A stretch of DNA of 64,000 nucleotides from Tubulanus polymorphus (GCF_964204645.1 NC_134028.1:2852001-2916000); one strand, 5' to 3'; positions 10,239-63,417 are shown, counted from the first letter of the stretch. A program made the numbers and translations. Notes: a model not told the origin generated them from the sequence alone.

Positions 10239-10453
10239 TCACGATAGGTAGAACACAATATCCGTGTTGACGCGATGAGGAGAGAATCCCACAATGATAA
10301 TAAAAAGTCCGAAAATGAAACTTCGAGATAGTAGTTTATTTCAACGTTGCGACTATATCCTAATAGTCATCTTCAGGAATAACGTTGAAATAAACTACTA
10401 TCTCGAAGTTTCATTTTCGGACTTTTTATTATCATTGTGGGATTCTCTCCTCA
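10239..10453. mobile_element. Penelope-like retroelement end fragment forming a perfect 73-bp inverted repeat
   Basis: Arms 10276-10348 and 10381-10453; direct repeat AGTCAGTTTCA at 10228-10238 and 10454-10464; minus strand reads CTGAAGATGACTAT...ATAGTCGCAACGTTGAAATAAA; related sequence at about 52205-52275. Confidence 0.65.
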
Positions 10454-15500: not shown

Positions 15501-18500
15501 TCCGCAAATTTTCGCGATAGAATATAGTTCGGAGCTTCCTTGGTTTATAACGCTTGAAGTCACGCTTGAAGTCATCGGAAAGAGTTCAAAACCCCTGAAG
15601 ACAATATCGACAGAGCCTGCGGTGAAACTTATATCTAGAAATCTAACAACAAGATGCTTTGAATAAGAGAACGGATATCTAAGATAATAGATGAATTAAA
15701 TCACCCGCGATGATTGAACTCTGCAGTTCAAGTGTCCACTTTAATTGAACTGGCGCGCCCGCTCGCCGCTCCGTGGAAATTCCACGGAGCTGCGGCCCCG
15801 ATAATTGGCAATAAGTATGAAAACATGTCCAGTCGTAAAACCCGGCGGGCAAGTTCTCCGGGCACGTGACTATATATATGTGGTACTCGTGTTAATGGTA
15901 TGTTAGGAATGGAGTCTAGTTGACACTGGGCCTCAAGAGTTTCACCGAGGGCTTCATTCATAACAAAGAGTTCAACATTTTCCATTATTGACCACAATAA
16001 CTGACCATAAGGTCATTTAATCGTTCTAGCCATGAATTGATAAATTCCCCCAGGCTAACATATAAAACGCCTTCCCTTTTGGACAATGTGTCCTATTTGA
16101 AATAATGATAAATATTTATTCACCTTATAAATTTAGTAGTAAGCCCAAAAACTTCTTACCCCATCCTCAAATCCTGTGATTTAGGAGTCATTTTTTCGAT
16201 TCAGGAGCCTTTAACACAAGCGTGTGGTGGAAGAATCTAGTTGATTTGGTCATTTCAGAAATGAATTTGACCAACCGCCCTGAAAGTCTCGGGGACGCCC
16301 ATGGGTGAGGTGCTCGAAAAGGAAAAGAAAGGCTGATAGCATTCTCGGAGACGTGGAGTTAATGAAGATGGTGAAAAAGTTCTGTCGCGAGTAGCTTGAC
16401 CTCGATCAGGGTTGAAGTTTAACCCCTGAATCAAGTGTTCTCCAGACTCTTCACTTCTTGCATGAATGATCATCTCCACACAAACAAAGCTACCGTTGAT
16501 TGTTATCGCAATTTTACGATTATTTTACCATTTCCGCAGTAGTCTGAACGGGCGATTAATAAAATCATAAACATCTCAATCCGAAGAAAAGAGTTTTTAT
16601 AACATCAGCAATAATGACACTCGAACTATTGACTAAAAACGGAACAGAACCATAAATAAAATACCCCCTCTTCTGGAACAATCGTTGAAAAGCTGAACAG
16701 TTTTAAGGAACTATATGCTCTGGTCATTAATTACCATCGGTTCATTATCACATCTATTGTCAGGTGCAGTTAGAAATGGGTTCGAAGATCTCTCCACGAC
16801 TAATGTCAATATCATTAGTTAGGATTTGACGACCAGCACATGTTGGTAGACTCCAAAATGGACAGCGTTGCTAGCCACCCGCAATTGAACGGCTTATCCA
16901 GCAACAGTCCATCCATCCATCTATCCATGGCTTCATTGAATCAAAGCATTCATCCACACGTTCAGATCAAACCAAAAGTTTCTTTAAGCGAAATATAAAC
17001 TAGTTTTTTCACATCACTGAATCATTAAAGTACTTTGTAAACAAGCTCAGATTTGAAGAATAGATATCTGTGAGATTGTTGCGCATATGTATGACCTTGA
17101 AAAGATCATATTTTATACTTTCTAAGCCAGACAGACGTCAATGTTTCACTTTCTTGCAGCTTTATCTCAAAATCTGTATTATTTGAGATAGAAATATATC
17201 AACTATATATATCAATGGATACATATTTCAAGGTCTGTATTTAGTATATAAAAATTTGACATAACTATGTAACTGTTTCCTGAAGAGAATTTCACTTGAG
17301 GAAAGTGGGGGGGGGGTGGGGGTGGGGGCGGGGCGCAGTAATAACATGCATTCATGGAGATAAAAATAATGAAGTTTCTAGACTGTTCATTCAAAACAAT
17401 TAAAATCAGCTGAGTGAGGGGTAATAGTGAGGGGTAATAGACACGAAGATCTCTTTAACTAACAAACTGAGGAATCAATCCTCACAGTTACTTCACAAAC
17501 TGAGGAATCAATCCTCACAGTTACTTCACTGTGTTCAGCTGAGAATGATGAGAAATTAACTGATCACTTAAAAACAGCTCTTACCACCGACATACAGGCC
17601 GTTCATTCATATTACTCAATATAACATTCATCACAAATCCTGACATTTACAATCCGATCGAATCTCCGATCGAATCTCTGTGAATAAATCACGAAAAAAA
17701 ATTCATCTAAAATCATCATTAATTTCTCTGTGTGTGAAACATACCGTCTATAGCAACCATACAGCTTTTAATATCTGATGATGATTAGTTTCTATTTCAT
17801 GATTTTTTTCTTCCTGTTGTGAGGAGTAATCATCGCGATAATGACTGGAAACCAGTCAAACGAATGTCTTGTGTAAATAGTACTGGATTCTGACTAATAG
17901 AGATATCATCAATCAGCTGGCCGAGTGGACGCTGGTCACATCGGTCAGCCGATACATTCTAATGGTCAAGACACACGTCGTAGAGCTGGTCGATAAACAT
18001 TCAGATGTCATTGGAGATAAATCTAGATTGATCGCTCGTCTTACGGATAGAGATTATCTACTAATCCATTTAGACAGGTACAAATTGGTGGCACAATGAG
18101 AGAGAGCGCTGTTTCACCAGAGAGAGACTGATAGAGGTCAGCTGACCAGATTACCCGATAATATCTAAGAGTTAAAAATAAAACGTGTTCTTTTCCATTC
18201 AAAACCTTAAGCCTAGCGCACATCGACACTGCGATTGGAGACAACTAGTTGCAAGGCAGTTTTCGGCGCATGAGAGGAACTGGCTGGATACGATCAGTTG
18301 CTTGAATGTGTCGATGTGAGCGAGCTTACGATTGGTAAGCGTCGATCTATCTCCAGTTCCAGCCAGTTGCCCATGTTCTACTTTTGAGCAACTGGTTGTA
18401 CTCAATCGCAGTCATATCCGTCGATGTGCGCGCTCTGGATCTCGACGATCGACACGCGCCATGCAGTTGCTGCAACTGACCGGTCGTAACTAGATTTCGA

Positions 18501-20011
18501 TGTGCACGGGGTTATCGTTCGGTAGCAACTAGTTGTCTCCAATCGCAGTGTCGATGTGCGCTAGGCTTTATCAGGTGCACTTGGAAATTTACTCCTCAGA
18601 ATTTTGCCTCATAGAAGATATTTGAAAGTTTTTGAAGTTGTTTTTCCGCTTTTTTTCGATCGAGAACGGCGTTTCTTAGATTTCTCGCTGGATCTGACAC
18701 TGACCTCAAATGCCAAATATCAAGGATGTGGTTATCAGACAAGTTGTTTGACCAAAACTCTTAAGAATGATGGCTGGCCCATCAATGATGTTAACCTTAT
18801 AATAAACGTCTGACATCAGGTGTTAATAAACGACATAAAAGCATTAAAGAACATGCGATGAGAATTTTTAATTGTAAGCTCCCGCTACGGTACGTACAGT
18901 ACTAGATATATAGACAGATGAATAGTTGATAGTGAATCATTCGTCTATATTCGTACACTAATCTGTTTTGCTGCCACATTTTACACGTTAAGTGAATCAA
19001 CTCCATGAGCAGGCAAACAACTGTACTAGGGTATATACCACAATGTATATACCCTTCAGTGAGCATTAACAACTTTACTGCCATCATTACATAATGCAAT
19101 ACACACACTCATACGCATTCATCATTTCACTTAATTCAAGATAGGTAATCCATCCATCCATCCATTTAGATCTAAAATACTGCTCAACTAATTTCCAGCC
19201 AGCTTATACTCCAGTCAAACCCGCTTATAACGGATTTTGGTCTAATCTGGACAATATTTGCAGTCAGAAAATGAGTTTCAATCCGGATAATTACTATTAT
19301 AAATCTTTATTGTTAAACCTAGCCATAGATTACTAAATCCAGATCAATTTCAGTCCAAGTCAAGGATCATATGTAAGAGCCAAGAATTTTTGCCCAATCT
19401 TATCATTGTACTTTATCCAACTCTTTTTATTTCTAGTTGTTTCCGTCTTAGAAACAGTTCTCATGTTCACCGAGAACTAGATTACGTCAGTTCTTAATAG
19501 CTAGATCATCACTACAAGTACAACCTATAGTCAGATGTAGATTTCTGGATGGCTCAGTCGATTGACTGTAACAGCGGTTCAGCAGTCTCAGAACAATGGA
19601 AAACAATATCGAGATGTTTATCCGATATACATATATCCCAGGGATAGAGCATCGTGTAAGACTAGGGTTCATTACTACCATGGTATTGTATTGCTGAGTC
19701 TGGTAAACTACCGTCCTTCAAATTCGCTCAAGAAATGAAAAAATAACAGCCTTACGCCAGAAGTTGGTAACTAGAAGTTGGTAACCTCAGCTCAAACTCT
19801 TCGGAAACTGGCCAGTGAGATATTCAGTCGGATATCAAATTAACGCCTTCTTGCACTCTGATTAAACTAATTGGTCGAAGGAATTTGAATCTGAATCTAC
19901 GGGATGGACATGTATAAAAGCTCTGCATGAGGTTAATGAAGTGTATAAAACCTTAGATCAGAAACCGGAGCAGAAACAACTGTAATTTTGTAATGTCTAC
20001 ACCTGTGGCAG

Positions 20012-32199: not shown

Positions 32200-32428
32200 A
32201 AGCCGGGATCAAACCGGATTCAAATTTGGCCCGTGTCTAATTAGAGAACGCTTTCATACGTAAACCACTCACTCGATATTAAACAATGCTGTGGCAAGTG
32301 AGGCGAGTCACTACTAGAACCAGTAAGCATTTACACGCCATAATCTGACCCGTGCTAAAATTTGGCACAGGCCTGGTATGGCGCGCTAAATTTGGTCCAG
32401 GTCAAAACTGCTCGTGTGATCTCAGCTT
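32200..32428. mobile_element. Dispersed MITE family, with related copies at about 52692-53000, 54955-55170 (reverse) and 44480-44695 (reverse)
   Basis: Shared blocks caaattt(g)gcccgtg-ctaattag, gtggcaagtgagg-gagt and tgacccgtgctaaaatttggc; imperfect AGCCG-GATCA/TGATC-CAGCT ends. Confidence 0.75.
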
Positions 32429-48400: not shown

Positions 48401-51400
48401 ATTTATTCCAAGGGGTTTCTAATTGACCAAGAAAGAAGGTTCTCATTGAAGTCTATGAACGAACTGACAGTTATGGCAATTAGGATTTCAACCAGAGGAC
48501 AACACAAAGCCCAATTCCTGTCCAATCAGGACATAGGCATATTTCATTTAGGCATAATCCGCTGGAAGACATAGTACAAATACCCAATAAAAACACTCTA
48601 CAGATTAATCACATACCACCATATACTTACTTATATGCTCAATAATATTTACATAGAAGTTACGTAGGTCTATGATTACTGTATATGAATATATGTGCAA
48701 CTTGTATTAGAATATAATTTTCATAATTCTCTTCATGCAATAAATATAAAGAACCTTCAAACTTTATATCAAAATCATGCATTCTCTTTTTGAATAGAAG
48801 ATATTCAATCTTTTAGGCCTGGCATAATCTGATTAACAATTGGAAAATGTCAGATTATCAGATATCAATCCAACAATTAACTGATGACTTCAAATCATTG
48901 AAATAATCATCACCTGCATCCTGGATATGGGCACACTTCCACCCTGAGGGCCAGTATTGATGCTGGACAGAATAACTGAGAGCCAGGTGCCAATAGTGTC
49001 AGGTGGCAAACTATGTCAACATAGGATCAGGTATCAGCTTGACACCAAGTGACTGAAGTGTGCTTAAAAAGCAGCTCACATCATTCCCTAATATTTTCCC
49101 AGTCTCTGATACTACCACTGATGGACACATAGTTAATCCCTGATGAATAATTACATGCACTTCACACATTCCAACAGATTTTATCACCATTTACACTTGC
49201 CCAAAATCCCTTACAATTCCCCAGATTAAATCAGGGACTTTACTCCTTCATCAAACCAGATTTCATCACTTTCACCAATAAACAAAGAGACAGATTACTG
49301 TATAATCAGCCAGATCAAATAAACATTACATACAAATCATGTATAAATATTATGAATGAATTATTGAATGTTGAATTGCAATAATTCAAATGTATTTGAA
49401 TCCAACTCAGAAGCCATAAGTTGAAATTTGAATCTGACAACTCCTAACTATGGAACAGGATCCAACTGGATTTAAATGAGCTGGCTGACTTTCAGGCAGA
49501 CATAAATTTTACCGATCGTGGAAACATTACTTTGTCAAATAACTAAAATCAATAGATATAGCAAAGACATGTAACTAAGAGATAAACTACTCTATAGCAA
49601 TAAAAGGAAAGGTCATATTGCCCAGAAACCAACTCCAGTGATTGCCTTGCAATAAAGCGATATCATAACTGTTATACAAACAAAAGGAATAAATTATCGA
49701 TTGATCAAAGTAAATGCGTGATCAAAGGATGTTTATGGTGTAATATTGCACCCTTATTGTTCAATTAAACCTAGCAACAGTACAGCACATCTGTTTATAT
49801 TTCATTTCAATTCAAAAGTTTCACACAAAGAAATAATCATTTAGAAATTTCTAGAGATATTATCTACTATTTCAACACCTAAGATTTAGTGAGTTGCTCA
49901 CCTTCTTGAAGTAGTCGGCCATTTCAAATTCATTTTTCTGGTTGGCGATGTCGGCTTTAACTTCAGAGTACGTGTCGTTGATGATGGCCAAGAACATGTT
50001 TATCAAAACGAAGAATACGAAGAAGACGTAAAGCAGGAAATACAACGGACCGAGGATGTAATGTGCGCGTTCCATTTCGTGGAAATCGAAATCACCGAGA
50101 ATGATTCGCAACAGTGTAAACCTGCAATAATATCAACATCAGTAAGTTAGTTGAACATCTAAGGGTGTGGCCACCTAAGAAATCCCTCCCAGTTTTCCCT
50201 GATTTATCCATGTGATTACAAAAAAATCCCTGAGTGAATCAGAGAAATTTCTAGATTTAAAATGTTACAATTCATTCATTTTTCATTGAATCATCTATTG
50301 ATAAAGAAATATGTGGTCAATAACAGTATCCACATTCCCCAAGTTTTCCATCATCTTTTCTAGATTTTTCTGATTCTCTAGAGTTTTCCAGGTCGGTGGC
50401 CATCCTACATGTGCATGTTCAAATTTCGTATCAGTTGTCCAGGAAGGTGACCACAATCACAGTTTTTTTCATAAGAAATTTTAGTAACTTCAAGAACCAA
50501 ATTGAAACAACTTTATCATTTTTTCTTGTCTATAGAACTGACAATGGCCTTGCATTACAGATCCCCCCCTTTTATTTTCAAGTTGACCATGTACATCCAA
50601 CCGTTCTGAAGGTACTTACACAGCGTCGAAGAAGCTCTTGAAATCACGAATCTGCGTACCGAAAATCAGATAACCGAGCTGAGCGAAGGCGAAGAATATG
50701 ATGAAAAACATCACGAAGAATCCGGCTAAATCTTTGGCTGAACGACTGAGGGTTGATGACAGTTGAGTCATTGTCTTGTTGAAACTGATGTACTTGAATA
50801 CCTACAACAGAAATTATACAGAAGTATTTAATGCATTTCAACTATATATGTGTATTTTTCTTTTTGATTTCAACGTATTAAGCAATTTTCATCTTTCATT
50901 TTGGGATTTGGTTATTTCCGTTTTTTGCTTATACCTTGATCCATGAGAAGAAGATGGTGATCGCGACAGCGTTGTTGAATTCGACTTGATAATAGCTCAA
51001 CTTTTCGAAGTCCATGAAAGACTGGCTGTTTTTCAGTAACGTTTCGAGTTTCTGCGTAACGACGAGCGTACGATAGATGTTGAACGCGATACATACAATC
51101 GATATGATAATCACAATCACGTCGAGAATGTTCCAGAAACTCTTGAAGTACGAAAACTTGTGTTTCTTGATCTGTTGAAAATGATATTGAATTTATCGTA
51201 TAGGTTCAAACAACTAAAAAGAATGGAGAATTTTTCTCAGAAAATTGGCGTCTTATTTAGATATAGTTGGATAAATGAACGAGGGTCAAGTCAGCAGGCA
51301 TCTTAATTGAAAATGAACTCGTTTTTGGAGTTGATAGAGAATAATTAGAATGTAACTGGGTCCTAATTTTTGTTGGCGATGAGAAAAGATATCAGAAGTA

Positions 51401-54400
51401 TTGCGATAAATTGTGCAACAAACAGCACAAATCGAAAGGGTGTTTGAAACGCACACCAGAATAATTGCACAATATATTTAACAGAGTTCACTGAATGACA
51501 TCTCAAAACATCACAACAATACTGCCAGTACTTTCACTCGTGTACAATACACACTAGAACAAAATGTATCTGAAAAACAGACACTCAGCAATACACAATG
51601 TACGGACACATGTGTAATGGACTGCACTGCAGCAGCGGTACCACACAATAGAACAGCGTCATAACAGGTGCGAGTTTGTTAGGGATGAAAGAACAAACCT
51701 CGATGAACTCCTCAACCATGTAATACAGTATATACAGACAAAATATACACTCGCAAACAAACACGAAACTATCCGTATTCGTATTATAACGAATCAGTTT
51801 CACAGTACGAAATACGGATGACGTAATCGCCCCACCTGTCGATGGGAACTCCATTACTAGTCTGAAATGGGCGGCGATGCGAGAGAAAAAGAGAATAGAA
51901 AAAAATATTTGATTAGATCGCGCGATTTATATGTATATTATGCGATGACCGATCGACTACAGTTTTGAACCTGAAACACTGGGAAAATAGAGTCCTACAC
52001 CGGAGAGACATTGACCCTGCGAAAATTTTGAGACTCACAGACCCTGCGAAAACCTCAGGGAGTTCGTTTCTATCAAATACTAGATATGGCATACGTCATG
52101 GTGTCAGAAATAAACAAAGGCAATAACTAAGATACAGTAAAATCCCATGATACAAAATGAGTCCCAATCGTTTCCTTGAGCTAGAAGTTTTTCTTCTATT
52201 TCATCTTGATAGTCATCTTCAGAAATACTAATATGGATAATCAAGGTATAATCGAAACGTTGAAAATAAACTACTAGCTTTTCAGACTAGTCGTTCTTTT
52301 TGTATTGCGAGATTCTACTGTATATCATTTCAACATGGTAATAACTAAGGTTATTGTGTAGGGTTCATCATTTTTCCAGTTTAGCAACATCTACTGAAGT
52401 CGCGTGATCAGTCATGCATAATACACTGAAAACTGACCTCGATAATTTCCTCAATCGAGTAGTAGATTATAAACAGAACGAAGATACATTCACAAACGAG
52501 GACAAAGTGGTCCAACGCGGTCGCGTAACGGATCAGTTTCACCGTGCGGAACACAGATGAGGTGATAGCGCCACCTGTTGCCGGGAATTCAAAAACCAAC
52601 CTGTAATTACATCAACAACAACGTGCTCATACAGAAACACACATAACATACACAGAAATGTTTTTTCTCGCAATTAGTAAAAGAAAAACATAAGCCGCGA
52701 TCACACGGGGAAAATCTTTCCCAGGTCAAACCGGCACGGACCAGACCTCAATTCAAATTTGCCCGTGCCTAATTAGCGAGTGCGTTCACACATAAATCAC
52801 TCACTTGTTTCAAAAAAATGCAGTGGCAAGTGAGGTGAGTTACATCCAGAACAAACTACCGGTAGAGCTTTCATACAAAATCATTTGACCCGTGCTAAAA
52901 TTTGGCGCCGACGTGGTCACACATATTTGATCAGGCCAAATTTCAAACAGGCACTGATGTGAACTGGCACTTGTCACAAAACTCTAGTGGGATCGCAGCT
53001 ATGATATAAGACAGTACACTGCAACATAGTGCAAGGTAAAATCAGTGTATTATGCATAGAAATTACATACAATATGAAGAATGACATTTTAATAAAATTT
53101 GACGACTGAGATCAAAACAATGATGCTAGCTCGATTAAGTAGAGATAATTGGATATCTTTTTAATTCTAAGTATTTGATCAAATTTCAATTCTCTACTTC
53201 TATGCAAATACCAATGAATTTAAAAGTTTCATAACACAGCTGCATCAACATACCTCACTACGCAGAATAGATTGATATTAGCATTGTAAACGGTAAAATC
53301 AATGAACACTACTCTCGTGCCTCTGTCCAACCACAGGTTATCTTTCAAAGCTCTGATTATTTCCGTAGATTCGGCTTTGGTCAGTTTCAGATCCTGCACG
53401 TAGCCACCCCCGCCGTACGATGTTATCTGACCCATGTGATTCGAACCGTCCAGGGCCGCCGAAGTCTGATAGCGCCACCTAGAAACGATAGCAGGAATGC
53501 GAATAGGCACATCTCGATACAAATTTTTATCAAAAGATTTTTCCTGGAAATAATTAAAGAGCTCTCATTATTATATTAACAGCTGCACTGAAAAACATTG
53601 ACTTGAGTAATTTCTAGACAATTGATCATACAAACTGCTCGCCCACAAGAACAGCAAACAGACGTGAATTCAACAACTATTCAGAGCTGTTAAACATCGA
53701 TTCTGGCAGGAGCTCTGGTAGAGTGCTATAGGCCATTCACCTGGAGCCGGTTCCACAGTCGTGTAGATGCTAGACTTAGTTAGAGAGTTGGAGTTGACTC
53801 ATTCGATATGAACTCCAAATCCACTCCAACTCATTGTGGTTAAGGATCCAGATCCAAATTTGTGATTTTATTCGGCGGTAATTCATTGAAAATGAACTGT
53901 TTTTAACTCAGGGAGAGTAAACTCTTACAACTGTGGAACTGAATCCTGAACATTTATAGTCTGTTAAGGAGAGGGGGGATATGATTTATTCCTCCCATTT
54001 CCGTAGTGAACGCGATCCTAGAATCAAGGTTATTTCAACCTCCCCGGCAGGGATTCGAACCTGATGGCATCGAGATTACCACGGCATGAAACCCTGCCAT
54101 AATCGACCGTGTGCGCAGATACATGCGCAGTTCAGATGATGTGATTTTTAGCCAATCAGAAATCCCGTTTTATTTTAGCCCGGGTTTTCCCATTTATAGT
54201 TCTTCCTTGAAATTTGCCTCAACGATTATACAACGAGCAATCTGATTGGTGCCGCCAGTTTTCGTTCGGAAAGCTGCGCATGTACCTGTGCACCCGGTCT
54301 ACTGATGCAGGGGTTCGTGCCGTGGCTGAGTGTAGCGATGCCATCAGGTTCGAGTCCCTGCAGAGGGAGGATGGGTTATTTCTCGCTGAAACTTACGCGG

Positions 54401-54942: not shown

Positions 54943-57900
54943 CATTACATGTATGTTTCACACAGATCAAATCTGGTCCAATCAAAATCTGCAGACCAGG
55001 CCTGTGTCAAATTTCAGCACAGGTCAGATTACTGCATGTGAATGCTAACTGATTATTGAAGACCTCACTTGCCACAGCATTGTTCATCATCGAGTGAGTA
55101 GATTTCGCGTGAACGCACTTTCTAATTAAGCGTAGGTCAAATTTGACTCAAAATGACCAAACTTTGGTTCATCTAAATCTATTTTTTTAAGATAATTTTT
55201 GGTAGTTCTTACCCTCCAGAAGTCGGCCATCGTGTTGGAGCCGCGGAATGTGTTTTTTGTGTCGTTAAATTGAGAATCGAGGAACAGTTCACTCATCACT
55301 TTAGTGTAGTAATACATCGTAGTACTCGTCATACAAAACGACACTAAAATAAAAACAACGAATAAAGCAAAATATCAATAACATTATACAACAGCCACAC
55401 TCAGCCGTGGAGAAGTCAAAACCCTACTATATACTGATTATCAAGATTAAAATTCGAAATTTCTCAAAGACAAATTAAAATGAAATTGGACAGGATGTTT
55501 ACCATTATTTACTGACAGAACTTTTTTGAACTCACTGAAACGACAAACTGATGAACGAATGCCGCTAATTGCAGCACCATACGTCAAGAATATTCACTAC
55601 AAGTGAAAGACTGGTCGGAATGGTCCCCACTTAATTGATGATGATCATCATTATCATCATAATCATCATCATGATTCATTTTCACGCTCAAAGATTTTCT
55701 CTAGAGAGAATCCAAAACTTCTTCGTCAACTTATTTTACTAATGGCATATTAAGAATATATTATCATCAGAGATAGTGGGTGACTTTTTTCAGGAATTCT
55801 TTCATTATTTCAATCACTATTGCAAGCGTTTAATTTGTTCAAATTGCAGCCTTCAATATTATTTTTACCAGCCACAAATTTTCAAAATAGCTTTTATGGA
55901 TTAAATCAATTGAACGTGCGATGGTGCCAATCATCGTAAAACAATTTCATATACTGCGCATAAATAAAAAGTGAAAATTTCAGATCGGAAATCTCGTGCT
56001 GGTTGTTTTACTGATAATTTGATAGTGAATGCTTATTGACATACAATACAACAGAACCTGCGCAGGTTCCATTAACGTCTAGTTCACTACCCAACGCTGG
56101 TTCGTTGCCATGGTGAAATAAGATGCTTACTACCGGTTATCAATAATTGATGAAGTGAATTCTCGATAGCACGCCTCACAGGATACGCGCGCGCGCATAT
56201 ATATATACAAAATTTACTATTCAAAATTCGAAATTATTCCGAAATAGGCTTTAGGGCTAGATGTTTTTCTTTGAATTTTAATAAGTTTTACAAAACTTCT
56301 GTCAATGTTACATATACATGTAAATACATCTTCACGTGATACACGCGTCATCAAAAACATTTTCACAAATATTTCTGGAAAATCTTTTACATCCATACTT
56401 TTTTCACGTCATTTCTTAACTACTAAAAAAGCTGCTGTCAGTCTGTGGGCCATTTCATCTATTGATATATTCCCTCTTCAGGGAAGCATTTCGTAAAGTG
56501 CTCTGAGCAGCTTGCTGGATTTAGCACTTTATAAGCCGCATTATAATTATGCACAATGATATAAGCAGATGATGAAAATGTCAATTTGTGAAGAAAAAAA
56601 AATCTCTATTCTTATTTTGAATCGACCGTAAATATAATCTCCGCTCTTTTTTAAATCTTCAGTTTCATCATCAGTTAATTCCTCAATATTGATTATGCTA
56701 TTCAACGACATCAGGTTTTATCGAGGTTTCTATAGTGACGACCGTTTCATGTTGTCATTACGGGAGAAATCGCACGGAATCGTCGTCGCTCCTAAACAGG
56801 ACAATCTCTCCGCACGAACAGTTTAAAACCGCCAATATTGTTTTGACAAACTTTATCATATTTGCTAATATATAAAATCTAACACAATATATTTTCCAAA
56901 ACGATATTTTTTCCACAATTTTTCCCACAATAGCTGTGTCTCTTTGGAACAATATCGATCATACTCTCCGTCTCACACTATTTTTCATTAATCAGAATTG
57001 TGCAATTTTTTTGAAATTTCTCATCTGAAATATATTCAAGCACGTTTCAAAATTCAATTAGATAACAACTACAGATTCTGTGATTACATGACATAATAGA
57101 AATAGCATCTGCAACCAACACAAATGTTCATTTTAACAATGTAAATATCATCGATCAAAGACAGTTTATCTAATGAAAAGCAAATCAGCCCTTATAACAG
57201 GCCTTTAGGCTTATCCAGAAAGTGCCAAAAATTGTTATAGACTGAATCAAAGGGAAAACTGTGACAAGGAAAATATACTTACGAATTCCCAGGATGATCA
57301 AAAATATCAGATAAACGATTAACTCTCGCAATGTTGTCTTGACGTGCAGTTCTCTGTCCTGAGAGGTTTCTTCAGTCTGTCGTGTCGCCCATAACGCTGT
57401 AAAATAGAAAAAATGTTTCGGAATCAGCAAAATGATATCTTAAAACTCAACAATCAGCAGGTCTATACGAGGTTTTATGATTGTCTTTTATGAAAATGGA
57501 CCCAGTTGATGAAATATACCCTAGTCAATATGGTTTTTCTGTTGATGTTGAAGACCATGAACTAAAAAAAACTCTGACAAGACATTTGCGTAGATTTCAT
57601 CCATATCATTTATCAGTAAACATCAATCTAATCAGGTAGCAATTCAATCTGATAGGATCAAGGTCATTAAGATGAAGTTTCACATTCTAAATTGAAGCTA
57701 TGTTTTGAAAAACATTCTTTTGACTGAAACTCTAAATATCATTAATTTTCTCATAAAAATCAATCTTCTAGAAACATTTAAGATGCGTGCGTGTGCATTC
57801 CAACGCACAAAATCTTTTTCTTACGTCAAACGCCGGTTGCCATGACACGTAATCTATTATTGACAACTCGGACGAAAGCGGAACGTGCCACAATTCATCA

Positions 57901-59420: not shown

Positions 59421-60867
59421 AAAAGCTACTCGTTGTTTTTCTGTCAGCTGATAACTGTTTGACAGGTCACAGCCAGTGCTACATTTCAAGAGCGTTTGCT
59501 TCAGTCTAAAGTTGCGCTTTACTTTTAACAGAATATTCATTGCGAATGGCATGATATGAGGTAGGCCTTGATAGCATATAACCGCATATATTGCATGCAT
59601 TTGAATTGCAGTGAGGAGTCAGAAGATCGAATCCAAGATTTTGAAAAATGAAGGTGAAGATTTTCGAAGTACAGAATGGATTCCATATTCCATAATATGC
59701 GGGTTTGATATATTTACTTCTAGTGGGAACAGAAACAGGCTCATTTTAGTTGAAGAAGATGCAAATTTGACCTGTTGACTTTGATGTAAATTGACATGCC
59801 AATGCATGATTAGAACTTGTGCTTCTTCAAGCTCAGTCAGTTTTCTACAGTAAAATCACGAAGCCTTTTTACGGTGGCACAGCCAGAACTTCTATAAGTC
59901 ATACTACAAACTTGTGCAGTTATCTAATAGGATCAACACATTTTCATTACTCAAGCAGATAGCTTAGATTTACCCAGAATTGTAGCCTTTATCTGGTGTT
60001 TATGTTAGGCTATCTGTAGTTCTATCCATTCTAGTGAACTTAAAACTATTAAACATTGATCGTAAACATTAAGGTATGGTTTGATTGAAATATTCATGTT
60101 CTGGAATTTCAATTGACAGCGTTCAATTTATTAAACTATTTAATCGGGCATGTTAGTTTGATGTAGGCCTATGGAGTTTTTACTATAGGCCTATACTGTT
60201 GATTAAGCGATTGTTTAGACTAAATCGTTTTCATATAACGAAGGATTATTTCGTACTTGTAAATAGACAGATGTTTGCATAGATTATTTTATGTAACTGA
60301 AGTCAGCTGTGAACTGTCTAAATTCCTCATTCTAGTTTAAGCTACTTACAGAATATTATGCTTCGATGTATTATTCATGCATTTCTATACTTAACTATTC
60401 TGTTAAATCTTAACCCGGTAGATGCCACCGGTTACAAATGGTTGGTTTAGGAATCCTCACCAATCGGAGCCAATCTTTGCCTTGACAGATTTTTTATGAT
60501 TTAATTTTTCAGGTTCCACCAGCAGAGTTCACTTGAAGCAGCAGCAGCAGCAGCGAGGTTATCGCCGCATTGTTTTCAGTTGGGTACTATGCCAGCCAGA
60601 TATACGATACACCGATCCATGCATAAACAGTCGACATTATATGCAAATATACCGTTCTGTAGTGATTATTTAATGACACAAAAAGTGACTACCAAGTGTT
60701 CGTTAATACGAGAAAACTCTGAGGATTTAAATCACCAAATAACGCTCTTTTCATTCTAATTAGTCAATGTCGTCAGTTTGAATTCAATTCGGGTCATATC
60801 CAAAATTCTAAAATATTAAATTTCCGAATCTTGCCACTGGAGATACAAAGTTTGTTGATTCATCGGA

Positions 60868-63417
60868 ATGCCAAAGTCTGGTCGAAATAGTCGTCATGCG
60901 AGCAAATCATCATCCTCGTCGTCGAGTAGCGACAGCGATTCCGATTCATCGGATTCCTCTACGTCGACTTTACCGATGCCAACGCCGCCCGATGGCGGGT
61001 ACGGATGGATCGTCGTTCTAGCAGCGTTCATCGCGAATCTCCTCGCGGACGGCGTCGCGTTCTCGTTCGGGGTTCTACTCGACGAGTTTCTCGATTATTT
61101 CAATGAATCGAAGAGTAAAACTGCGTGGATCGGTTCGTTGTTTCACGGTATTCCGCTCATCTGCGGCCCGATTTCGTGCGCGTTTATAAACAAGTTCGGC
61201 TGTCGTAAAGTCTGCATCGCCGGAGGCTTCGTATCCAGTATCGGGTTTATTTTGAGTTTTTTCTCGCCGAATATTGATTTCTTATGCTTTTCGTTCGGCA
61301 TACTCGCCGGTTTCGGACTGTCGATGGTTTACACGCCAGCCGTAGTCATCGTCGCGTTTTACTTCGAAAAACGGCGAGCATTCGCATCGGGGCTATCGGT
61401 ATCGGGTAGCGGTATCGGCGCCGTCATCTTCGCGCCCTTATGCGAGAAGCTGATCGAATGGTACGGCTGGCGCGGTACGCTATGGATCATCGGCGGTTTG
61501 ATGTTACATTTCATCATCTGCGGCGCGTTGTATCGACCGCTCGAAACGAAACGCGAACGAAAACGTCGTAAGCTGATGCGATCGTTGGATCGGTTGTCAC
61601 GTTTGCGAAACGAGTCGAGCAACAAATCGGAATCGAGCTCCGAAAGTTTAAACGACGGCAGCTATCATAAGAAAAACCACCGGCGACGATTACTACGTCA
61701 ATTCAGCGAACCTCTACATCATTCCCTTATTACATTTCCGACATTCATGAAGGCGTCTGCTCAAAATCATCCGAAACAATCGAAAAGCGATAACGTCATC
61801 GACGACATGACTTCGAATTCCAAGATACCCGACGGTGAAGATTCGCAAAAATTTTCCGTAAAGGCGAATTCGGTATCGTGTATCGACAATCCTGAAACGA
61901 CGGACACTCCTGAATCGACGTTATCCGATCCGGTCGTCATTCTTATAAATGGTGCTAGAAAACCCGAGGATCAGGCGCTTCCTGACAACGATCTGATGAT
62001 TAACTTTGCGAACAGTAACTCGGATACGGCTGGTCAAACCGTCGATGCGCCCGCAATCGATGAAATAAATACGTTAAACGATGCGACAACGTTACACAAT
62101 AATAAATCTAACGGTCACCATCACCATCGAAAGACAAGCGCGACGAAACGAGATGAGAGTCAATTTTTACCGCTGTACCGTCGAGATATATTCTACCGCG
62201 GTAGTTTACTACGATTGTCATCGATACGCGATCAGGTGACCAGTCACAGCTGTCCGAATGTCTACCAAATGCACGACGATGACTCGTCGTCGAGCGATGA
62301 CAGCAGCGACGGTAAACCGTGTCGATGTCACGGGCGAAAACACATCCGAAACGTCATCCGCGAAATGCTCGATATCACCATCTTAAAGAATCCACTCTAC
62401 TTGTTATTGTTCATTTCGAATTTTATTTTGTATATGTGGTTCGATATTGCCTATTTTTTCTTGCCGAACTACGCGACCGAGCTCGGTGTATCGGACCAGC
62501 GAGCCGCGATGGCGATATCGATAACCGGTATCGCTAATATGTTAGGACAGATCTTTTTCGGGGTGATCGGAGATCGTCCGGAGTTGAACACGGCGTATGT
62601 GTATGGTGCTGCTACCGCTGTCTGCGGTGTCGCCTCGTTATTCGTCCCTTTTTGCCGAGAGTTTATTAGTATTTGGGTATATAGTGCAGTATTCGGCTTC
62701 TTCATCGGAGCCAACTATTCTCTTGTCTCCGTGATTATTGTGAAAGCGCTGCTTTCACTGGAAAAACTAACAAATGCTTATGGCATAATAATGTGCGGTC
62801 AGGGTGTTGCAAATCTAATCGGACCTCCTTTGGCTGGTGAGTGACTTCTTATCCCCGATGCTTTAACCCTTTCGGTGTATCTACTCCGCAGTGCGATGTA
62901 TAAATCAGTGATGGACGTTGCTAGTGCACTGCACCGCTGTTTATTGATGTTATCAGTAATTACATTTTATATACCTGGTATATTGAAAATTGGCAGCACC
63001 TGTCAAACATAGCAAATTGTTGGTAAATAATGATACATGGTATTGCTGTTTAGACGCGTATAGCGGTTGCCCGTTATTCAGCACACAGTACTAAAAGGGT
63101 TAATAGATGTCAGGGATGTAACCATTCAATGCACTTTCCTGTAATCATAAACTGTATACTTTGTTTCAATTTCAGGATACCTGTACGACATCACTGGTAA
63201 CTACACGGCTACGTTTGTCTGCGGTGGAGTATGGATATTCATCTCTGGAGTTATGTTGTTCTTGGTTAAACCGATCAAGATGTGTCAGAAATGTTGCGCG
63301 AAATATCGCTCGAAAGAATCTTCATCGACGATGTCGGGCTCGTCGTCCAGGGAAACAAACTTGCAGACGACTTGTGACATCGAGTTAAAATCTGCGAGTC
63401 GCGGAGTGGCTTTATAA
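60868..63417 (+). CDS. Monocarboxylate transporter (SLC16/MCT family, MFS), 736 aa, large central cytoplasmic loop
   Basis: Exon 60868-62836 (G|gtgagt) + exon 63176-63417; PPDGGYGWIVV signature, [33 protein letters not shown]; two hydrophobic helix bundles. Subfamily not assignable by eye. Confidence 0.95.
62867..63099. mobile_element. piggyBac-type MITE in the SLC16 intron
   Basis: TTAA|CCCTTT...AAAGGG|TTAA. Confidence 0.8.

Follow-up and report, generated by a model that had tools for sequence, protein, structure and literature searches.

The closest described system to the locus analysed here is human ATE1, where, in the available passages of Kalinina et al. (PMC7797038), the R3 element, which lies between the duplicated exons 7a and 7b, pairs alternatively with R1 or R4, as proven by compensatory mutation; these elements are conserved, and the elongation rate affects the exon ratio. 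A two-way central docking site is, on the strength of these passages, already published, and ATE1 is a closer precedent than Drosophila Dscam1, to which an earlier note on this DNA had compared it. At exon 6 of Dscam1, as described in passages of PMC6071210, similar elements compete for one complementary site, the docking site being outside the cluster of 48 exons. Bidirectional pairing, with four intronic elements, has been described for exons 4.1/4.2 of the Drosophila gene serpent (srp) (passages of Yue et al., PMC4691838). An intronic stem controls the frameshifting duplicated pairs FGFR2 IIIb/IIIc (IAS2-ISAR) and SCN9A 5a/5b (ISRE1/ISRE2, with Rbfox2), according to parts of PMC12772994, and in OGDH 4a/4b and alpha-tropomyosin a donor-to-branch-point distance below a proposed threshold of about 50 nt prevents exon joining, according to parts of PMC7969005.

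In the window (the whole 64,000-nt stretch of Tubulanus polymorphus DNA that was analysed), the gene concerned is a polycystin-2-like gene (PKD2) located on the minus strand, and the RefSeq protein maps onto the window exon by exon. The exons are as follows:

53254 to 53478, minus strand: PKD2 coding exon 5, constitutive, upstream, 225 nt
52438 to 52600, minus strand: exon 6a, 163 nt, present in RefSeq X1 and X2
51699 to 51861, minus strand: exon 6b, 163 nt, intact
50935 to 51171, minus strand: PKD2 coding exon 7, constitutive, downstream

Exons 6a and 6b have the same length (163 nt) and phase, AG/GT borders on both copies, two open frames and 41 identical residues out of 54. From their divergence (pS 0.78, which is saturated; pN 0.18), we conclude that they are an old duplication, both copies of which are under coding constraint. 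The translation of 6a is 100% identical to the RefSeq Tubulanus polymorphus polycystin-2-like X2, and the RefSeq cluster of this protein consists only of X1 and X2, which differ in their C-termini and both carry 6a. The 6a/6b segment corresponds to residues 441-494 of human PKD2 (6a being placed through its paralogue 6b), which we take to cover the last part of the extracellular TOP domain plus the S2 helix; if both exons are used, the two channel forms, differing in this segment, could gate differently. As 163 is not a multiple of three, skipping both exons shifts the frame, and inclusion of both leads to a premature stop inside 6b. The 6b acceptor is stronger than that of 6a (pyrimidine fraction 0.77 vs 0.55), and the region upstream of 6b comprises an AG-free zone of 97 nt. 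We also noticed that a K-L-I stretch (52539-52531 in 6a; 51801-51793 in 6b) is written with the same codons in both copies despite the saturated synonymous sites; either stretch could, by prediction, base-pair with the 6a donor, and the shared codons may reflect codon bias.

Exon 6b is absent from both RefSeq isoforms (X1 and X2). It was also not found among the 249 exon-6 segments compared (279 proteins were fetched, 252 of them with the motif), where the best match to 6b was 6a itself, nor in a search of short proteins (29-95 residues), and the residues of 6b at four positions are present in none of 163 distinct homologous segments. Two copies of exon 6 occurred in none of the 71 related PKD2 metagenome loci, all 71 having a single copy; 21 of these loci are informative, having an intron on either side as well as the neighbouring exons 5 and 7 (16 distinct exon sequences). 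Similarly, in 20 protein clusters (two of them represented by 15/30 and 15/40 members), a single exon-6 version was observed per named species among the members listed, apart from differences of one or two residues, and Lineus longissimus likewise has a single version in its two isoforms. An ancient duplication of exon 6 is not supported by these data (71/71 single-copy loci; single version per species in 20 clusters), and, as judged from the sequences compared, the exon duplication looks lineage-restricted. It is worth noting that single versions elsewhere do not prove that 6b is absent from those genomes, because the annotation misses 6b in T. polymorphus too. Two database models of PKD2 (P0123 and P0124) each contain two occurrences of the exon-6 motif, at spacings of 162 and 696 residues, and are either larger internal duplications or model artefacts.

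The pairing elements and the neighbouring signals are as follows:

53196 to 53222, minus strand: element D, +32 to +58 after exon 5, with a B-like core
53042 to 53058, minus strand: element C, upstream partner of B (and D), ending 441 nt before the 6a acceptor, with no overlap
52531 to 52539, minus strand: stretch within the exon whose predicted pairing partner is the 6a donor (52438-52430), P 0.69-0.76, as a prediction only
52393 to 52429, minus strand: element B, the docking site, beginning at intron position +9 after the 6a donor
51933 to 51963, minus strand: element A, the partner of B on the downstream side, −102 to −72 relative to the 6b acceptor
51912 to 51916, minus strand: predicted 6b branch-point motif CTAAT, branch A at 51913 (−52), from a consensus scan only

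The positions and sequences of A, B and C given in the earlier note all match the DNA, including the start of B at +9 of the intron after 6a. As that note had claimed, C (53058-53042) and B (52429-52413) form 17 contiguous bp, 16 of them Watson-Crick followed by a terminal U-G (−24.2 kcal/mol). The 29 bp between A (51963-51933) and B (52426-52393) (−35.2 kcal/mol) show the irregularities it had described (two G-U pairs, one U-U mismatch and bulges of 1 nt and 4 nt). The elements and exons are laid out in the order C, 6a, B, A and 6b, C and A have a common core, and the predicted 6b branch A (51913) follows 19 nt after the end of A. The proposal that C and A compete for the same bases of B holds on a core of 14 nt (52426-52413), to which their overlap is limited, but not elsewhere, where B can accommodate C together with the 5' half of A. 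On this shared core, C is a stronger partner than A (−23.4 vs −13.5), and the 3' 20 nt of B (52412-52393) pair with A only (−14.8), thereby constituting a private toehold for A; in a forced fold, C:B coexists with the toehold half of B:A. In the C:B state, the predicted helix between the exon and the 6a donor abuts C:B. It had further been argued that the wobbles are G-U on the transcribed strand only, as expected if RNA structure is selected; all three wobbles are as stated, but the argument is weak, because three out of three is a 1-in-8 outcome of an even coin and the transcribed strand is the one used to draw the helices. In terms of energy, B:A favours the transcribed strand (−37.5 sense vs −28.4 antisense), and C:B has no strand bias (−25.4 sense vs −26.6 antisense).

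Element D, which is absent from the earlier note, is predicted to pair with C (53063-53037) through a helix of 11 bp and, after a bulge, 5 bp, with two short outer stems in addition. The D:C pairing amounts to −20.2 kcal/mol, a value matched by none of 500 shuffles of the first 179 nt of the intron, and the pairing of D with A is negligible (−5.5). The occurrence of a common core in D, B and the complements of C and A yields the order D-C-(6a)-B-A-(6b), which suggests that a whole stem-loop was duplicated together with the exon. It is the core that points to this origin, since the overall similarity between introns 5 and 6a is not significant (41/300; 6/300 for the first 80 nt; lenient gap costs); the D-C segment as a whole folds at shuffle level (z −0.06). 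A 16-bp perfect match surviving from the duplication would presumably have decayed unless it was maintained. The D-C/B-A layout suggests that a switch can arise when an exon is duplicated together with both stem-loop arms; the duplication model in the available passages of PMC6071210 considers one-arm duplications only.

Comparison with shuffled controls, which the earlier note had called for, places the joint two-way docking above chance. The 16-bp perfect run of C:B was reached by none of 300 dinucleotide shuffles, and the local duplex scores of C:B and B:A were reached by 2/195 and 0/195 shuffles, respectively. When C:B and B:A were required to go through one docking base of B, no shuffle out of 195 attained the observed score (−12.2 vs a mean of −5.2, sd 0.9), a result reproduced under three other settings, namely two other penalties and block shuffling (0/60 each). 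The joint score was also unmatched in 180 real frames of the window (best −11.0 vs −12.2 observed). Single helices this strong are common in these real frames, as found in 17/180 upstream (two of the 17 contain C:B and B:A themselves, roughly at threshold) and 26/180 downstream. A coarser test with 40-nt tiles, which split B:A between tiles, gave 8/60 for C:B, which is unremarkable, and 1/100 for B:A. The window comprises 18 perfect inverted repeats with arms of at least 12 nt located at most 1.5 kb apart, three of which are longer than the C:B run. A duplex score calculated without an extension cost (30, 2 and 6/234) aligned through random sequence (shuffles near −70) and was discarded as non-local. 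No other copy of the 17-mer was found in the 64-kb window with up to three mismatches, none of D, C, B and A overlaps a dispersed repeat within the window, and the Rfam covariance models had no match in 50900-53500 at E up to 1. In the intron after 6b, the best partner for the inter-exon intron is at shuffle level (−7.3 vs −12). What stands out is the coincidence of two helices on B, not either helix alone; the complementary elements surrounding this constrained exon pair are real and statistically unusual.

The locus also contains two repeat-derived stretches, with neither of which D, C, B or A overlaps:

52751 to 52943, no strand assigned: dispersed-repeat insertion between C and 6a, outside the pairing elements (blastn hits at 32218-32377, 55062-55146 and 54969-55029)
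52107 to 52331, no strand assigned: hairpin in the interior of the 6a-6b intron, derived by decay from a copy of the 10276-10453 foldback element

The 6a-6b intron has folding z scores of −4.3 (sense) and −2.9 (antisense), and its interior alone scores −3.1; the score of this intron is partly due to the decayed foldback element inside it. An origin of B and A as the terminal inverted repeats of this inner foldback was rejected, as B and A lie outside it. Other features of the window were noticed in passing. The foldback element at 10276-10453 has perfect 73-bp arms; 18209-18568 contains a perfect 44-bp inverted repeat, 272 nt apart; and intron 4 harbours nested inverted repeats at 54042-54366 (a foldback element), with a folding z of −8.0. 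Intron 9 (49400-45600, minus strand) comprises, by eye, two similar copies of more than 1 kb, with a short coding-like segment at the end of each (about 48370-48075 and about 45990-45665). A long coding-like region divergent from PKD2 occurs at 60860-63400 on the plus strand, and we take it, from its motif, to be a monocarboxylate-type MFS transporter gene.

The folding of growing transcripts was calculated as an ensemble at equilibrium, not as kinetics. With a transcript ending just past B, C:B is predicted to form with P 0.999, a value that falls to 0.62 just before A. With both introns present, the probabilities become 0.012 for C:B, 0.98 for B:A and 0.86 for D:C. Blocking D raises C:B up to 0.09, and blocking the 3' half of A brings C:B back to 0.999. 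Forcing C:B costs about 2.7 kcal/mol compared with B:A, and the toehold helix stays. The two-way switching put forward in the earlier note is thus borne out as a predicted C:B to B:A exchange, and has to be amended in that B:A wins at equilibrium and D competes for C. The geometry assigned to C:B, which loops out 6a, is as claimed (612-nt loop). Because B:A is ahead by about 2.7 kcal/mol at equilibrium, the C:B state would be an early one, reached kinetically. The 6b branch point, as predicted, is 0.7-0.8 unpaired, and its branch A, which falls within the 97-nt AG-free zone, lies about 525 nt from the 6a donor in linear distance and 11 + 19 unpaired nt (about 30) from it across B:A. Dscam exon 17 (Yue et al. 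2013) is reportedly a steric-hindrance pair to which RNA structure is said to contribute.

From these calculations, we propose, tentatively and with a chance that we place a little short of even, that the D:C, C:B and B:A chain operates as a timing-dependent splicing switch, in which the early C:B state would lead to 6b, and the late D:C plus B:A state to 6a. B, once transcribed, would take C from D, thereby placing 6a in a 612-nt loop with its donor paired beside the helix. About 430 nt later, A would land on the free 3' half of B (the toehold), and B would temporarily splint C to A, so that the exon 5 side and the 6b branch point would be about 34 nt apart; the splinted state, if spliced, would yield 5-6b-7. 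A would then displace C over the 14 nt and D would recapture C; the B:A helix, leaving 11 + 19 nt, under the steric limit of about 50 nt, would block 6a-6b joining, and the product would be 5-6a-7. The products with both exons or neither, being frameshifted, would undergo nonsense-mediated decay, which is an established principle. In this model, the sequences, their complementarity, the frame arithmetic and the statistics are observations, from which we infer every effect on splicing. The C:B/B:A layout would likely decide which exon is used, and in the late D:C plus B:A state 6a would become available and its joining to 6b would likely be prevented; the use of 6a in RefSeq agrees loosely with the predicted stable state. 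Several points speak against the switch: 6b was found neither in the two RefSeq isoforms nor in the other proteins compared, single helices of such strength are common in this DNA, C:B lacks a strand bias and was unremarkable in the tile test, the 163-nt length lets decay alone explain the exclusivity of the exons, and, by analogy with the RNA bridges described in passages of PMC10790352, the shortening of an intron by a helix could favour splicing instead of blocking it. A bolder version, rather doubtful as a whole, is that the D-C-B-A relay, generated by duplication of a stem-loop together with its exon, would be a toehold strand-displacement timer, through which the polymerase speed or an RBFOX-type protein would set the outer-domain/S2 segment of the channel.

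Several other readings of these data have to be weighed. B:A alone may matter, as a fixed lock that keeps 6a and 6b from being included together by bringing the intron between them under the steric limit, with C:B and D:C as incidental pairings or minor tuners. The dominance of B:A at equilibrium (0.98-1.0), its strand bias, its greater robustness as a single helix (0/195), its position 11 nt from the 6a donor and 19 nt from branch A, and the folding of the 6a-6b intron (z −4.3 sense, −2.9 antisense) are consistent with such a lock. We regard it as unlikely, for it leaves unexplained both the perfect 16 bp of C:B on the same bases of B (0/300) and the D:C match (0/500), and part of the intron folding is supplied by the foldback remnant. 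B also contains a UGCAUG motif (52418-52413; +20 to +25 of the 6a-6b intron), from which one can envisage that an RBFOX-type protein bound to this site activates 6a, that pairing with C or A hides the site, and that decay clears the errors. UGCAUG occurs in only two of the 13 introns scanned (the 6a-6b intron and the 4.5-kb intron 9; six hits in 12,421 nt), it is buried in both helices, the 1-nt bulge of A falls inside the motif, and Rbfox and RNA structure act together at SCN9A 5a/5b (passages of PMC12772994). Against this competition between protein and pairing, to which we attribute a lower probability than to the fixed lock, a single hexamer has a chance of about 2% of falling in B at the gene's own rate, the 16-nt extension of A onto the 3' half of B is left unexplained, and the RBFOX site in B is a sequence motif only.

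The uniqueness of the 17-mer in the window (up to three mismatches), the lack of any repeat match for D, C, B and A, the joint score unmatched in 180 real frames and the location of the elements next to splice signals all argue against neutral leftovers of foldbacks or inverted micro-duplications, with frameshift and decay alone making the exons exclusive. This neutral reading, which appears improbable, nevertheless draws support from a window rich in foldback elements, one of them inside the 6a-6b intron and another intron reaching z −8.0, from the frequency of strong single helices, from the 163-nt length of both exons, and from the resemblance of D...C and B...A to two elements with related ends. 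Finally, the pairings could be real and act otherwise: the B:A bridge would favour 6b or double inclusion, or the structure would silence a barely used 6b. The first of these outcomes would fit the ability of RNA bridges to promote splicing (passages of PMC10790352), and a barely used 6b would fit its absence from any annotated isoform despite its stronger acceptor (0.77 vs 0.55; 97-nt AG-free zone) and its residues at four positions in 0/163 homologous segments. We consider this very improbable, as 6b keeps an open frame, both splice sites and a low pN in spite of the saturated pS, and double inclusion leads to a premature stop in 6b.

The timing-dependent switch is the reading that we favour. 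No published structure-controlled exon switch of PKD2 was found in the literature searched by title, start of abstract and passages, in agreement with the earlier note, which knew of no such switch for a polycystin/TRPP gene, and a search on the species name gave no splicing paper by title among the matches listed. If true, this switch would add a TRPP channel, and ribbon worms, to the known cases of exon choice governed by RNA structure, and would provide a compact (1.3 kb) model joining the srp loop-out, the OGDH-type steric block and the central docking and elongation dependence of ATE1.

Similarly to srp, as described in passages of PMC4691838, a pairing between the upstream intron and the inter-exon intron loops out the first exon to promote the second, which is what we propose for C:B. 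In srp, the second stem loops out the second exon via the downstream intron, and the two stems described in these passages share no site, whereas the second helix here is inside the inter-exon intron, the best downstream duplex (−7.3) being at shuffle level. Unlike OGDH-type steric pairs (passages of PMC7969005), the donor and the branch point, a predicted one here, are about 525 nt apart in linear distance, and about 30 nt apart only if B:A forms. As in exon 6 of Dscam1 (passages of PMC6071210), similar elements compete with each other, but the docking site is internal and serves two exons. The present locus also resembles SCN9A (passages of PMC12772994) in having UGCAUG, the Rbfox motif, beside the structure; FGFR2 and SCN9A, as presented in these passages, operate with one helix, not with competing helices, and the SCN9A helix is downstream of the second exon.

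The likeness is greatest with ATE1 (PMC7797038, in its available passages), since both loci have a duplicated exon pair with an inter-exon element that pairs with mutually similar elements located upstream of either exon. In ATE1, R1 and R4 overlap and hide the 3' splice sites, whereas C and A lie 441 nt and 72 nt upstream of the acceptors; the ATE1 exons are 129 nt long and in frame, whereas those reported here are 163 nt long and frameshifting. Furthermore, B is beside a donor and is accompanied by D and a toehold, in a locus known from sequence alone. Together, these comparisons indicate, as far as the available passages go, that the general mechanism is already known, and that the variant found at this PKD2 locus consists of elements C and A that are clear of the splice sites, complemented by element D and a toehold.
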